Shown here: positions 2,056-23,687 of the stretch, piece by piece | Layout: every line of letters begins with the position of its first letter | How positions within the stretch are numbered: the first letter of the stretch is position 1 | Origin: Vicugna vicugna | Lineage: Eukaryota | DNA length: 64,000 nt | Direction: 5' to 3' | NCBI GenBank assembly: GCA_013265495.1 | Contig: MU058198.1 | Location: forward strand, 2,554,419 to 2,618,418 | Notes under the pieces: model-generated | What the model was told of the DNA's origin: nothing | What the model saw: the letters and a program-made list of their open reading frames with translations, nothing else | Databases searched by the model: none | Position numbers and translations under genes: made by a program

Positions 2056-2112
2056 CTATGGTATCTCATAGTTAGAAAGTCCTCTTCTGTTTTCGTAAGT
2101 ATTGTCTTTCTC
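2056..2112 (-). CDS. IGSF6: IGSF6 exon 6 coding part EKDNTYENRRGLSNYEIP*
   Basis: Acceptor tattgcag|GAG, TAG stop at 2058-2056; two Tyr motifs as in recalled human C-terminus. Confidence 0.92.
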   Translation of the reverse strand, partial: EKDNTYENRRGLSNYEIP

Positions 2113-3300: not shown

Positions 3301-3381
3301 AGGCTGTTGGCTTCTTTCCGCGTGTCTCTTATTGTATAGTTCTTGAGCAATTTCCTGAAAAATACGCCGAGCACTCTTTTT
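3301..3381 (-). CDS. IGSF6: IGSF6 exon 5 KKSARRIFQEIAQELYNKRHAERSQQP
   Basis: Acceptor tttacag|AAA, donor CCT|gtaagt; conserved IGSF6 cytoplasmic motif. Confidence 0.95.
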
Positions 3382-3784: not shown

Positions 3785-4448
3785 CTGTCAGGAAGAAAAA
3801 AAAAGTCTTATAAGACATATTATACACTCACAAACATTATGGCAGGTATCACATAGCATAATAAGGTAAAACTAACTTAATATTTAAATAATATTCATTA
3901 ATAGTTAATTTTTGTGTCATTTCTGAGATGCTTTTATTAATAAAATTGTTCAAACTGTTACTGATTGTAGGATTCATAGTAATCCTAATATAACATATAG
4001 CATGCCCCCTCTCATAGCATGTGAACAGCCACAAGATATTCTTTTTCAAGACCTTTAGGCCTTTTAAAAATCTTTTAAGGCAGTTTCTGACCTCTTTGTT
4101 AACCACTTTTTCTCTTAAAGACTGTCCTTAGGCCTTTCATGGATGACAGTAACCCTCCTCCCCTTCCAGCAGAAAGATACCATGGAAGATGGTTATTAAG
4201 AAGGATCTCTTATTCTCATATTACTGGGTTTTGAAAAGAAAACCCTGTGAATCATGTACTCTGGTTAATAATAATCTCAGTGAAGAAAATTTGTGCTTTC
4301 TTCTGTAGACCTCTTCTGCAGATGCAAAGGAGGGTGTTAATTAGGTGAGCTCATTTCCAAGACTCCCAGTGTGTGGAGGGATGGAAATTATTTCCTTATG
4401 ATAATATTCAAGGCCATAGGGACACCCAGTGCAAGCAATTTGACTTAC

Positions 4449-4552
4449 TTTGGCGAGGACGATGAAGACCCCGAATACACCAGTGACGTAGACACACAGC
4501 AGCGATAAGAGAACCGTCGGTGCTAAGAGTTCCTTGCTGAGAACCTTTGTAT
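4449..4552 (-). CDS. IGSF6: IGSF6 exon 3 (transmembrane) DTKVLSKELLAPTVLLSLLCVYVTGVFGVFIVLAK
   Basis: Acceptor aacaaag|AT, donor AAA|gtaagt; hydrophobic TM segment. Confidence 0.93.
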
Positions 4553-6592
4553 CTTTGTTAATTACAGGCACAGAAAGAGCCACAGTCAATATTGAAACGT
4601 ACTATTGCAAATAACACATGTAAAGTATAACTGAAACTACATGTTAGAGGAGAAACATAAACTTACTCTATGTGGCTATTCATGTAAAAATTTACCCAGG
4701 GTCTGTTAATTCAGAAAACACTCAAGTATATGATATGGTTAAAGCCAGTTCCTTAAGCCTTTAAATGTATTATGCCAAAAATGTTGTTTGTTTTTAAAAC
4801 TAAAAATTTTTAACAATTGAGTTAATTATTTGTCATAACGCTAAGAATCCTTTTTTATATAAGGTGTTGCTTAAAGTTAAACAGTTCAAGACAGTTTGTT
4901 CAAGAGTGTTTAAAATTTCTTTGAGTAGATATGATGTACAAATGTCACCAAGAGTCTCTTTATGGAGTTAAGATCCTCTCCCACGTGAATCTCTAACCTT
5001 GAACTGTTTCGTACACGTGGCTGAATGGTGCCGTCTGTGAAAGAACCTGAGAAGGTGCGCGCTGAGGATCTTAGTGCTCGCTGCACACTTACAGGGCAGG
5101 CATTGCTACATGTGCCCCTTCTTTCTAAGGAGGTTCTGGAAGTGGCATTATTGAATCCACTTGCACGTTCTGAATTTCCCCCTCCTTGCAGGGAGTGTCC
5201 TGCGCTCCATGTAGGGATGAAGTAACACCGCGTTTTCAAGTACCTGATTATTTGAAGTACAAATTCCAATTAGATTTGTAATTATTATCTGAATAATTTG
5301 TACTTTTCAACTAAATATCCCATAGGTGCTTATCCTGTGAGCTCAATTTATACAACATACACTTTTGTTGTGAAACCAACAAAAATGTATTTGTAAAACT
5401 AAAAAAAAAAGTTTCAAGTGTGAAATTAGGAGCTCTGTAGAAAAGGCAGGAAATTACCTTGTCTTTTTAGCAGTGAGCTCATTTCCACTCCTGGAGTAGA
5501 ATGTCTGTTCATGTGAGCTTGCAGGTTAGAGACCGTCTTCTCTTTACCGAAAATTTTTTCTTTTGGCTAATATTTTTTATAGAAGACTAATGCATACTAA
5601 TCTCCAGAGTTGTCATGTGTTTGTTTTAATGTCTGTGGCTAACATTTATTGAGTACTTGCTGTAAGCCAGGCACCATTAAAAGTGCTTTATGTGCATTAG
5701 GTCATTTATAATGTACCTTACAGGTAAGAATAAACTAAGGTTAAATGACAATGGAGTATCAAAAGCCCATTAGAACACTAAAATAAGGATTACAAGACAG
5801 GACGAGCCAGGCTCCTTAAAATCCTATTTTAAAACCAAAAGGTGGTTAACTTGAGTTTATGTTTTAATGATCTCAGGGCTTATCATACTGGAGTTTTTTT
5901 TTTTTTAAAAGAAAAGAGATCCAAACAAAGCACGGAGTACTGCCCTTCTCATCTTTCTCCCAAAATCATGTGAAGCTTTTTTTCTTGAAATTTGTTAATT
6001 TCTTACTTTATAGAACTTAGCTGAAGTTCAGTATCCTCATGAAAGTGTCATGGATTTTAGTAAATCTCAAGAAGCCAGAGCCACACCGACCCCCTTTTTG
6101 TTCTCCGTCCATGCGGAGGGAGTAGGGTCAGGGATCCCCCAGTGGCTTCTCCTAAAATTTGTGTTTATTCTCCCGAATGCATATTTATTTCTGGGTCCAG
6201 TTGACGGATAACTTACGCCTCTCAACTGCTCTGTTCTAGATGGCGCAGTGCCAGATCAGTTCCTGGCAAGGCTGATAGTTAATCATCACATTTCAATCAG
6301 TGTGATAAACAGAAAGGAGGATATAGTTGGTCAGCCTTCAGTACTAAAGTCTGGGCGTTGCAAGAGAATATAGCACCTGCCTTAACCCTGACTCTGTGTC
6401 TGTGGAGGCTGGGAGATGGGGTCGGAGTAGCTCTTTAATCCAAATTTCATGTTGGCTTGTGTGCAGATCACGTGCTTCACTGACTCCGGTATTAAGGTTA
6501 GCAAATTGATCTCATCATCTCTGCATTAGAAGCAGGTAATGCGTTTGAGGGCTGAGCAGAATGCTGTGTACGGGAGTAAAACCTTGACTGAC

Positions 6593-6949
6593 CTCTTACC
6601 ACCAGCACCGTCCCTCCTCCGGTCCCCTTAGCTCTTGGTCCCGCTGAGCTGGGAAACGCTACTCCGCAGATGTAGATGGCACTGTCATCGAAAGCCACCC
6701 TGTTTATAGTGAGGGAAACCTTGTCCTGTGCCAAATTCACAACTGTGAATTTGTCTGTCTCCTTTGTGCATCCATCCAAGCACAGGTTCTCAGGCTGGTG
6801 AGCGCCTTAGCGAAACCACAGGATTGTTGGTTGCTCTGCAGGGCACCCCGCTGTGGAGAAGGAGCACTGCATGGTCACGGGCTTTTGGGTGTAGTTCACG
6901 TCCAGGTAAGGCGGTTGGTAGATTGAGACGATACAGTCGCCTGCAGCAC
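6593..6949 (-). CDS. IGSF6: IGSF6 exon 2 (Ig V-type domain), interrupted by in-frame TAA at 6809-6807
   Basis: Acceptor cccacag|GT, donor AGAG|gtcagt; reads [18 protein letters not shown]...QCSFS...[17 protein letters not shown]...[11 protein letters not shown]...[12 protein letters not shown]-track entries 6807..7031 and 6498..6779 are the same frame split by the stop. Confidence 0.95.
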
Positions 6950-7088
6950 CTGTGGGAGGAAGCGGATGATCCATGTCAAGTGGCTTCTGCTTTATCACCG
7001 TTTTGGAGCAGAGGAACCTATTGAAACCCATTGCTTGCTTTTTTTTTTCACCTCACTCCCAGCACAAACAAGACTGTAAAAGTAGACA

Positions 7089-7218
7089 ATGGTGCCAGTG
7101 TTTTATATTAACCATAAATGGAGTATAACCTTAAAAAATTACGAATCACTATATTGTACACCTAAAACTTGTGTTGTACATCAACTTTACTTCAATAAAA
7201 AAAAATTTGTATAGAAAG
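7089..7218 (+). mobile_element. Short 5'-truncated LINE-1 3' end
   Basis: L1 3'UTR-like sequence ending cttcaataaaaaaaaa; flanked by direct repeat aagtagaca (7080-7088 / 7219-7227). Confidence 0.65.
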
Positions 7219-10271: not shown

Positions 10272-10338
10272 CGACAGAAAATAGAATCAGATTGATTCCC
10301 AGGCTGAGAATGATCTTGCCTCCGTTCACAGCCTCCAT
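10272..10338 (-). CDS. IGSF6: IGSF6 exon 1 (signal peptide) MEAVNGGKIILSLGINLILFSV-G
   Basis: ATG at 10338-10336, hydrophobic signal-like peptide, donor G|gtaagg, phase 1. Confidence 0.9.
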
Positions 10339-10650
10339 TTCTGTGTGTATGTGTGACGTGGGGGGAGTGTGCGTTTGAAAAGAGTTGGCTTTTTTTTTTC
10401 CCCTTTTTTTAGAAAGGAAGAACTAAAGAGAGGAACTCTTATTAAGGAACCATAATCGAGAACGTTTTGAAATTGTGTAAAGATTGTTTGTAACCCAGTT
10501 TCACCATTTAAAGTTGAGATTTTTAACCTAGAGCACATTTCTAAATGTTCATATGATACATTTTTCTTGGATTTTACAAATCCTCAAAGATCTTAGATGT
10601 TTTGATGTTGATTTACATGTGGTGCATATTCTCAGGAAGTGTTTTTTCTA
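10339..10650 (-). promoter_or_regulatory. Probable IGSF6 proximal promoter/5'UTR with PU.1/ETS-type sites
   Basis: Immediately upstream of IGSF6 ATG; AAAGAGAGGAACT (10425-10437) and CAGGAAGTG (10633-10641); no obvious TATA box; IGSF6 is a myeloid gene. Confidence 0.5.
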
Positions 10651-12964: not shown

Positions 12965-13243
<279 letters not shown>

Positions 13244-19348: not shown

Positions 19349-20429
19349 ACCAAGAGCCTAGGGACAGACAGGTGTTTTTGAGAATGCTGATAAATGTTAT
19401 AACTATTTATAAATAATATAAATATTGTATAAATAACTACCAGAACAGTACAGTTGGCCATTTCTGAAGAGAATGTGTAATTTTGCCATTGACAAAATAA
19501 TGTCAGCATTAGGCATTTCAGTGGTTACTTTAGAATTTTTCAGATCTTGAGATGTGTTTCAATAATGTAAAGGGTTGTAAGGAAATCTCCAGAGTTCACA
19601 ATTATGTTTTCAACAGAAAGGACGTAGAACAGTTATGCATATTTCCACCATGCAAACCTTACACTTCAATATATTCCTTTCTGTTTTAATAAAAAATGCA
19701 TATACATTTATTACTTAATATTCGGCCTTTTCGCATATAAAATAATTTCCTTGTATTTCTATTACACACTCTTTGTTAATGCCCATTTAAATAGCTGTAT
19801 CAACTATGAAGTTATATACCCACGAAGCTGATGGAGTATAGTTTATGTAACCATTTCCTTAATGGTGGACAGAAGTTGGTTTTTTTCCTACCACCTCTCC
19901 CTCTTTCTTAATATTTATATGTAACGCTGCTGCAGTAAATATTTTGGTGCACAAGCCTGCTTAACCTCTAAGGATTTTTTTTCCCGTTAGATACATGTGG
20001 TCACATTTACTAATCAAGGGGATCTGAATATCTTTACAATTCTTATTATTTTACAAAAAAGTTTTATTATGGAAAATTCTAAGCACATAAAAAAGATGAA
20101 ACTAGGTAATACTGGTCCTTGCTCAGGCTGCCCCAAGTACCATCATATGGCCAGCTTTGTTTCACCCAGGCTCCTGCCACTCCTTGGTCCCTGTTATTTC
20201 CAAACCCCAGACATCATATTTGAGTTTTGTAAATACATATGTGAAAGATAAGAACTCTTAAAAGACACCACATTGCAATCGTCACACCTAAAAATAACCC
20301 CTAACTATTCAACATCCAGCGACCACATCGCTCCAATTGTCCTATCATTTTTTAAATAGTTTGAATCCGGATCCAAAGAGAGTCCCTACATTGCAATTGG
20401 TGGATGTGTCTGTAAAGCCCTTCAGCCTC

Positions 20430-20900
20430 TTCGTCCGCCGCTTGTCTGGGAGAGGGGAGAGGGGCGAGGGAGAGCGCGTTTTGTCTTGCGCGCTTCGGGA
20501 CTGTGACCCCCGCGGCGCTCGGAGCCCGGGTGTCCCCTCCGCAGGTGCCACCGCAGGGAGGTGGGAGCCGTTCCCACCGCCCGCCCGCCCGCCGGACTCA
20601 GAGCAGCAGAGCCGGGCACCGCAGGTGAGGTGCGGGCAGCCGGGGAGGAGGACCCGGCGGGGCCAGGCGCACGGGACGCGGGCGGGAGCAGCTGGTGGCG
20701 CTGGGGTCGCCTGGGGGCCGGGGGTTGGTGGTTGGAGAGGGGGGTCGCCGCGGGGCCTCCCCAGGGAAGAGGCACAAGGTGGAGTGGGGCAGCTGGTGAC
20801 AGAGAATGGAAGATCGGCGAAGGTTTTTAAGGGCCCATGGGCCGGGGGTGTCCGTGGGGTGGAGAGGGGAGGAGGTGATGAAATTTCCAAGAAACGGATC
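20430..20900 (+). promoter_or_regulatory. OTOA: CpG island; probable OTOA promoter and non-coding first exon ending at donor 20624
   Basis: Sharp rise in GC and CpG density, GC boxes (ccgcccgcccgcc ~20577-20593), donor GCAG|gtgagg at 20624/20625; the first coding exon has its own acceptor only 4 nt before the ATG, so an upstream non-coding exon is implied. Confidence 0.7.
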
Positions 20901-23687
20901 CGAACCCACTGGATGACAGTAATAAGAACAGCAGTGGTGACAACTTTGTAAGGATGTCAGCAGCAAAAACAACAGCGTCAGGACTAATAACAGCTCCTGT
21001 TCATTGAGTGTTTACATGTGCCAGTGCTGGGCTCAGTGTTTACATATTCTACATATAAGGAAAGCTCTTTATACATTTTACGTGTTTTATCTCATAGCTG
21101 TTGTGAGGAAGAAATGGGAATATACAGGTAGAGCAAATTGCACCAGCTATGCATCGGATAAATCGATGAACTTTACAAATGTTTGCAGCCTGTGTGAAGG
21201 AGGGGCCATGGCTGTCCCTCATGGTGCAGGAGAGGAAATGCAGGTGGTGCAGGTGGAGGAACTTGTTCAGGCGCTTGCAGCCAGTATGGGGTGCTTTAAA
21301 TTAAACCCGGGGCTTCAATCCCCAACGTTGCCCTGACCACCTAGAGTTTTAGGTTCAGGGCTGCGGAGCAGAGGCTGGAGAGCAGAGCTGGTAAGTGTGT
21401 GGAGTCATTTATCTCTGCATTTGTGATTCACCTACTAGCTGTGTGACCTTGGGCAGTTCACTTGACCTTTTAGAACTTGTTTCCTAGTCTGTGAAAAAGA
21501 AATAATGGTAATGCTTGCCTCAAAGTTTCTGCAAGGACTGAGCAGGGCAATGCGTGTAGCAGGCATGTGCTTTGTTCTCTCTCATTCAACGGTTGCTACT
21601 GCCTCGGGTCCCCCTCTCTGCCATTTGCTTGCTCTGAGACCTCTGCATGTCCACTGAACTCATCTGTGACACTTAAGGGAAGTAGACCTTCAGGGCCGGT
21701 GGATCAGGTGAGTAAATGAAATGATCCAGTAGATGGAAGATGCTCAGTGAGACCAGTGTCCTCCTCTCGGAGTCTCCCCCTTTCATCACGGAATCCCAAG
21801 GCTTCCATTTTGCTCTTCTGAGATGAAAAGAGAGGAAGGGGGATGACTGTCCAGGGTCGCTCACTATCAGGGGAAGAGCTGGAACCAGTGCTCAGGCCTC
21901 CATGTGTCTGTTCCAGAAAGCACCCATTCCCTGAGTTCTACAGCACTTGTGAGCCGGGCTGTTCCAACACCACGGTTTGAAATGAAATCCAAACCCAGAT
22001 CAGTCAGCCTGGTATCTACAAACCAGACAAGTTAGCCCAGTTTGCATTAATAGTAATGAAAATGGTCTTGTGTTTTTTTTTTTTTTGGTAAAAAATCTCC
22101 AAGTTAGTATCTATAGACCCGTATCCATATGTATGTATCCATAATACAGGCTTTTAATAGAGCTGCTCTGCAGACAGTAAAACTCCATGTAATTGTGAAT
22201 TGTTGGTGTATGTCGGGCATGGCAATGCCCCAGCATCTTTGCAAGTTTCATAGAAGATGCTATGTTTCTCATCCTTTGGGTGACCAAATCGGTATCCTGG
22301 TTTGCCTGCAACTTTCCAGGTTTTAAAGCTGAACCCCTCAGTCCCAGAAACTGGGATGACTGGTCTCTCTGCTTATCCAAAAGCGTGAAGTTTTTCAGAA
22401 AAACATGTTCATTTCAAGATTGTGGTTATTGTTGCTGTTTTCATTCTAAGTTTCTTCAAAGTAATCCTTGCCTGCCTAATTTTCGCCCATCTGCAGGGAG
22501 AAGGCCTTTCGGTGAGGAAGGGGTGGGGTGCATGGAGAAAGCTATCCACCGCCAGATCGCCTTTGCCACAGCTCAGCCCTTTCAATCCTCTTGGCCAGTC
22601 TCCTGGAAGAGAGTGACCCGAAGGGCTTTTAATTAAAACCAAATCCCATCCTGGCAATTTCGTTGGAACGAAGACTTTGTGGGCAGCAGAAAGCAGGGCT
22701 TCTGTTTCAGTAATTGTAAACCTCTCGCAGAGTTAATAGGGAGGCTGCAGCGACAGGCACAAGAAGCCTCATTGTCTGGGAAACTGGAGAGTTGTGAATG
22801 AGACCAATGCCCCAGGGCAGCTGACCAAAGGGAAGGGAGGAAAAAGGGCCAGAGGTTCCCCAAAGCCCCAAAGCCAGTGAGCATTATTATGAGAGCTGAC
22901 CGCACCAGCCTGCCGGGGTAGGACTGATGGAGCAGAACGCGTCTACAAAGTGCTTTGGGACCACGTTCGCTCGAAATCTGTTAGAATGCGCCAGTTTTGG
23001 TGTCTGGAGGTTTCAAAAGTTTCATTGGTTTTTGCCCTTGGGCAGTGAAATGAGCAAGTACAACTCTTTTCAAGGCTGGTTGTGAAAGTCCCCTGGGAGA
23101 TAAAGAATCCGTTTGCATGACAAGCCAGACAATACCAGGGAACTCTGTATTAGAGGATGCTGGGGCACCCAGAAGGGAATCTCAAGAAACCCATGGCCTG
23201 CATTATGGGGTCCCTTCAAGTTTCTGTTAAGAGGGTGGCATTCTGTAACTGGGGTGTGGGCGGCCTGGGAGTCAGGGGATGCAAAGCGCAATCCCCAGTC
23301 TTCCCCTGACTTGACCCAGGAGCAGCGCTTAAGTGGTCCTCCCCTTTCTGCCTGTGACCTCCAGGACACCATCCACACCTGCTTTCCTCCCAGCTCTCTG
23401 GCCACCCCTCTCAGCCCCTTTTCCTGGTTCCTCCTCATCTCTCCACCCTCTTTTATGAAAAACACCGCCTCTGTTGTTTTGCTTTTTCTTTTTAAAAGTC
23501 AGTTGTGTGGAAAATTTCAAGCCCATGTAAAGGTAGACACTTGAATATAATGGACCTCGTGTACCTGTCACCCAGCTTCGGTGGTCAACTTGTTTCATCC
23601 ATGTCTGTTTCCTCCCCTTAGATTATTTTGAAGCCATCTCAGACATCTCATTTCTTCTGTAAATATAAAAGAATGGAGTTCTAAAAG

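Follow-up and report, generated by a model that had tools for sequence, protein, structure and literature searches.

IGSF6 and its genomic setting

The stretch of DNA analysed here (64,000 nucleotides, referred to below as the window) contains the whole of IGSF6 on the minus strand together with the last coding exon of METTL9 on the plus strand. The exons of IGSF6, a gene also called DORA and expressed in myeloid cells, were mapped by tblastn of the IGSF6 protein of alpaca (Vicugna pacos; P0002, 237 residues), with their borders set on canonical splice sites, and the METTL9 exon was located by Pfam search.

10272..10338, minus strand: IGSF6 exon 1, with the ATG at 10338..10336, the signal peptide and a GT donor, ending in phase 1 (tblastn and splice sites)
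6593..6949, minus strand: IGSF6 exon 2, 357 nt, phase 1 to phase 1, encoding the V-set Ig domain (PF07686, E = 8.6e-09) and holding the stop described below
4449..4552, minus strand: IGSF6 exon 3, stalk and transmembrane segment
3737..3784, minus strand: IGSF6 exon 4, juxtamembrane basic stretch
3301..3381, minus strand: IGSF6 exon 5, conserved cytoplasmic KKSARRIFQEIAQELY stretch
2056..2112, minus strand: IGSF6 exon 6, C-terminal TYENR and SNYEIP, with the normal TAG at 2058..2056
13037..13237, plus strand: METTL9 last coding exon, corresponding to positions 199–265 of the 265 of the DREV profile (Pfam search)

In this six-exon model each of the five introns begins with a GT donor and ends with an AG acceptor, and the spliced coding sequence comes to 714 nt, that is 237 codons plus the TAG. 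The six exons map one to one on alpaca P0002, with the same start and stop, and the encoded protein is identical to it at 236 of 237 residues, the only difference being at residue 70, which is Tyr in alpaca and a TAA codon in the window. The window encodes all of the landmarks that in P0002 numbering are Cys51, Cys117, the hydrophobic segment 153–175 and the tail tyrosines 208, 225 and 234, and the cytoplasmic tail is conserved in the alignment of homologues. The 116-residue piece specified by exon 2 finds 41 protein matches at E ≤ 0.001, nearly all of them named immunoglobulin superfamily member 6, the best being the IGSF6 proteins of alpaca (P0002, 99%) and dromedary (P0003, 97%), and its V-set domain scores 36 bits (cut-off 26). 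Searched in its own genome (2.03 Gb in 12,405 contigs), exon 2 together with the flanks gives one match, so IGSF6 is present as a single copy. The window thus holds the orthologous and sole IGSF6 locus, with no spare copy, and this locus is the true single-copy IGSF6 of a South American camelid, closest to that of alpaca.

Dromedary P0003 begins 12 residues earlier (MHTPPTSHIHTE...) than the alpaca protein, and positions 10339–10374 of the window (minus strand) encode the same peptide in frame, with Thr where dromedary has the upstream Met. Because of this replacement the annotated alpaca start, MEAVN, corresponds to the first ATG available here.

A Pfam search of the genome for the DREV profile (METTL9) identifies four exons on the plus strand of the contig that contains the window, and the exon preceding the last one (profile positions 138–200) lies 6.2 kb upstream of the window start. 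With METTL9 exons on either side of it, IGSF6 lies whole and antisense inside the last METTL9 intron, a nesting on the opposite strand that it shares with human IGSF6, which the legend to Fig. 5 of a 2026 review of METTL9 places in the last intron of that gene (PMC13027442). The exon 2 protein itself is about 66% identical to that of the great-ape representative, orangutan P0020. The first DREV-matching METTL9 stretch, which is outside the window (G000:C1614:2541551-2541772), has one TAA inside the matched frame that may belong to intron or UTR sequence at the exon edge.

There are 412 frames of at least 55 aa in the window. When the 150 longest stop-to-stop frames were scanned against Pfam, leaving out the 7 that overlap IGSF6 exons, the METTL9 exon was the one hit among the remaining 143, apart from three chance matches below threshold. 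At 20298–21333 the DNA is GC-rich (GC of 0.515 over 20001–22000, against 0.33–0.41 in the bins just before), and both of its strands contain long open frames, of 217 and 203 aa, with no Pfam match; this stretch is possibly a CpG island, or else the next gene begins here with its first exon. Within intron 1, just upstream of exon 2, there is a short interspersed repeat of about 115 bases (7088–7210), for which the 40 candidates scored, of 1,607 in its own genome, match at 81–87% identity.

An in-frame stop at codon 70

6807..6809, minus strand: in-frame TAA at IGSF6 codon 70, which is Tyr in relatives (sequence, and comparison with other sequencing runs)

The relevant part of exon 2 reads, on the minus strand, TGG TTT CGC TAA GGC GCT CAC CAG CCT GAG AAC CTG TGC, with CTG as the codon directly before TGG TTT CGC TAA and with the TAA at 6809..6807. 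A T on the plus strand at 6807 makes codon 70 TAA; the other camelid runs described below have G at this position and hence TAC, or Tyr. Translated with the TAA as X, the exon runs from AAGDCIVS to GTVLV (AAGDCIVS...GTVLV) and the frame resumes past the X, codon 70 being the sole internal stop in the 237-codon spliced coding sequence. Because of this TAA, IGSF6 has no open frame from ATG to stop in the assembly. The stop is 214 nt upstream of the exon 2 donor and is followed by four introns, and position 6807 lies outside any homopolymer.

The preliminary description of this DNA had recognised the gene as IGSF6 and had reported a single nonsense codon (Y70*) at 6807..6809, caused by one base (T at 6807 of the plus strand), in an otherwise intact gene with its six exons, ten splice sites, Ig cysteines, transmembrane segment and tail tyrosines preserved. 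We recover the same sequence and gene model and each of these features, and the 41 homologues, headed by the IGSF6 proteins of alpaca and dromedary, bear out the identification. That one base makes the stop agrees with the contigs from four camelid organisms, which read G and hence TAC, and the geometry given for nonsense-mediated decay (214 nt to the exon 2 junction and four introns after it) came out the same when recomputed.

Codon 70 in other camelids and mammals

As only one codon is concerned no test against chance is needed; it stands out by the conservation of its column in the homologue alignment, which is Tyr in 38 of the 41 sequences, His in one, Leu in one and a gap in one (a pig isoform), with no stop in any. 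The alpaca protein P0002, with Tyr70, comes from an independent assembly and not from that of the window, its contig measuring 47.4 Mb and that of the window 7.9 Mb.

Contigs of four public DNA runs, one for each coded camelid organism (X6, X3, X10 and X14), were compared with the window over positions 4400–7080 (2,681 bases). All four have G at plus-strand position 6807, each in a contig that runs on for at least 165 letters past the site, which shows that the Tyr allele is present in these animals and would still be compatible with a rare or heterozygous T alongside it. The exons of these other runs contain synonymous variants and one non-synonymous variant, and no other disabling change. 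The non-synonymous change Arg69His is found in X14 (coded organism D) alone, where a plus-strand T at 6811 turns codon 69 on the minus strand from CGC to CAC; it is a CpG transition, and the residue concerned belongs to the Trp-Phe-Arg motif, nearly invariant, that immediately precedes Tyr70.

A wider set of runs was queried through a run index. The query had the site at its centre and consisted of 201 exonic bases, corresponding to 21 sampled words. The index listed 24 runs, 20 of them with all or part of the query. All 14 DNA-labelled runs (the four coded organisms, 10 samples and 5 studies; the label 'DNA' is the guess of the index) contain 17 of the 21 words, a share of 0.81, and none contains more. 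Since position 6807 falls in 31 of the 171 possible words (18%), which would be missing from any run lacking the T, this is the share expected if none of the 14 runs carries it. The RNA-labelled runs contain 0.67, 0.43, 0.43, 0.14, 0.10 and 0.10 of the words, shares that bear on neither expression nor allele. An exact 31-nt pattern adjoining the site was found in no stretch of metagenome contigs.

The stop is thus private to this assembly. A comparison of IGSF6 from other camelids, which the preliminary description had proposed as a check, gives TAC at codon 70 in all four organisms, and its suggestion of an incipient lineage-specific gene loss is not upheld: four of four runs have TAC, the 14 DNA-labelled runs reach at most 17 of the 21 words, and the independent alpaca assembly has Tyr70. 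There is accordingly no disabling change common to other individuals or species (4/4 runs have TAC), and no further lesion or sign of relaxed constraint, as IGSF6 of the window has no other difference from that of alpaca and its splice sites are intact. A literature search found no work treating IGSF6 in alpaca; among the matches listed, as judged by their titles and the beginnings of their abstracts, it found no loss of IGSF6 in any lineage and, on IGSF6 together with knockouts and macrophages, no paper with IGSF6 as its subject.

Sequence differences surrounding the stop

Within the 2,681 bases compared, 28 places differ in at least one run, and the window differs from all four runs at three places only, 6450, 6636 and 6807. 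The two that accompany the stop are as follows.

6636..6636, minus strand: private difference in codon 127, CCA in the window and CCG in all four runs, synonymous (Pro), a CpG-to-CpA transition
6450..6450, minus strand: private difference in intron 2, CpG in the other runs and CpA in the window, a transition

All three positions are CpG in the other runs, and CpG makes up 106 of the 2,681 bases (4%) of the stretch; by rough arithmetic, random placing would put three of three private differences in CpG about 6 times in 100,000. The differences at 6450 and 6636 are CpG-to-CpA transitions, a change more frequent in the germline than any other type, and we take these two to mean that the assembled haplotype has genuine private mutations no more than 360 bases away from the stop. 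The number of private differences in the window is in the range of those of the runs (one in X6, two in X3, one in X10, and four plus one insertion in X14), and the window has no private indel in the bases compared. A paper on camelid genomes (PMC7331169) offered nothing from which the number of private variants to be expected could be gauged.

The nearest run is X3, with eight letters different from the window over about 2.5 kb covered with holes, followed by X6 with 12 differences, X10 with about 20 and two gaps, and X14 with 22 and four gaps. In our judgement the eight differences in about 2.5 kb make it likely that none of the four runs is from the source animal. Some variants unite X6 with X3 and others X10 with X14, the window having some in common with either pair. 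There is in addition a small divergent haplotype patch in intron 2 (6355–6392). Here five substitutions and a 2-base deletion, all inside 40 bases, are common to X10 and X14, and X6, X3 and the window agree with one another, so that the patch splits the coded organisms into two groups.

Two origins of a wrong base were considered and rejected. Polishing cannot have been led astray by a paralogue or retrocopy in the assembly, as exon 2 and its flanks have a single match in the genome, and a gap-filled patch is excluded by the absence of any N from the 64-kb window, the 200 kb of flanks having one run of 21 N about 96 kb past the window end.

Discussion

The TAA at codon 70 of IGSF6 is either a nonsense allele of one animal or an assembly error, and is not gene loss. 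We consider it probable that the sequenced animal really has this nonsense allele, perhaps in the heterozygous state, and that the allele is rare and fixed in none of the four organisms sampled, and we also lean, if with some reserve, towards its being a true germline null allele of IGSF6 that segregates in a domesticated South American camelid. This leaning is based on the surroundings of the stop, as the private differences all lie in CpG, two of them are typical transitions, they are not in excess, no private indel is among them, and there is neither a paralogue nor a nearby gap from which a wrong base might have come. From these we infer that the T allele exists in the animal. What counts against a real allele is that the T was seen in no read or contig outside this assembly among those compared.

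A possible, if doubtful, explanation is that the animal has TAC, that the T at 6807 was introduced by base-calling, consensus building or polishing, and that IGSF6 is simply intact. The T is indeed found nowhere else, with G in the four runs, the same word share of 0.81 in all 14 DNA-labelled runs and Tyr70 in the independent alpaca assembly, and the rest of the gene is without sign of decay. The type of change is also of some concern, as G-to-T is a transversion, and so a rarer germline change than a transition, and is a known oxidative-damage artefact of sequencing libraries. Furthermore, unpolished nanopore assemblies are known for consensus errors at CpG, linked to the effect of methylation on base-calling, and all three of the private CpG changes could have arisen in this way, although the absence of private indels speaks against it. 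An error of consensus would also have to be reconciled with a region where private substitutions are not in excess and no gap lies near, with a site outside any homopolymer and without a second genomic copy to mislead polishing, and with two neighbouring private differences that bear the CpG-transition signature of true mutations.

The remaining readings both accept the stop as real. That it represents a lineage-specific loss of IGSF6 that has become fixed, or is spreading, in the source species or population is very improbable: what speaks for it is the stop itself, and that the organism of the window might lie outside the four compared, but the contigs of all four coded camelid organisms have TAC, ten samples from five studies give the same word share, the closest run (X3) has only eight differences from the window in about 2.5 kb, and there is no second lesion in a protein otherwise identical to that of alpaca, nor any other disabling change in the exons of the other runs. 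For the organisms sampled, a fixed or incipient lineage-specific loss is rejected. Still harder to credit is a stop that is bypassed by skipping of exon 2 or by translational readthrough so that the protein is still made, as exon 2, with its 357 nt (a multiple of three) and phase 1 at both ends, would permit skipping without this implying that it occurs, but skipping would delete the whole Ig domain, which is the sole extracellular module, and TAA followed by G is a strong terminator.

If the TAA is, as we favour, a real allele, translation would end after 69 residues, directly behind the conserved Trp-Phe-Arg. This truncation precedes the second Ig cysteine, the membrane anchor and the tail, and would be expected to leave a null protein, and re-initiation is not to be expected, there being no in-frame Met codon downstream of the stop. 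Premature stops more than about 50–55 nt upstream of the last exon-exon junction generally subject an mRNA to nonsense-mediated decay. At 214 nt before the exon 2 donor and with four introns after it the codon 70 stop is in such a position, so that by this geometry the IGSF6 mRNA with the T allele should be degraded. The T allele, if real, would accordingly be a null allele. In that case a conserved myeloid receptor of the Ig superfamily would be naturally knocked out in homozygotes, and heterozygotes would provide a clean in vivo read-out of nonsense-mediated decay on the IGSF6 transcript. To our knowledge the ligand and function of IGSF6 are still poorly defined.

The situation has something in common with that of unitary pseudogenes, in which a disabling change is also found at the orthologous single-copy locus, but differs from it in that the window has one lesion, which is unshared, in a coding sequence without drift. 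A closer likeness is to the rare protein-truncating variants of healthy humans, which likewise consist of a single nonsense change in a conserved and otherwise unbroken gene and are absent from other sampled individuals, with the difference that the allele in the window is known from the assembly alone.

The biological weight of the stop is small. Both a truncating variant private to one animal and a wrong base are of a wholly familiar kind: some such variants are present in any mammal, and some such errors in draft assemblies. Llama- and alpaca-type camelids are not losing IGSF6, and to annotate it as a pseudogene from this assembly would mislead comparative screens for gene loss.
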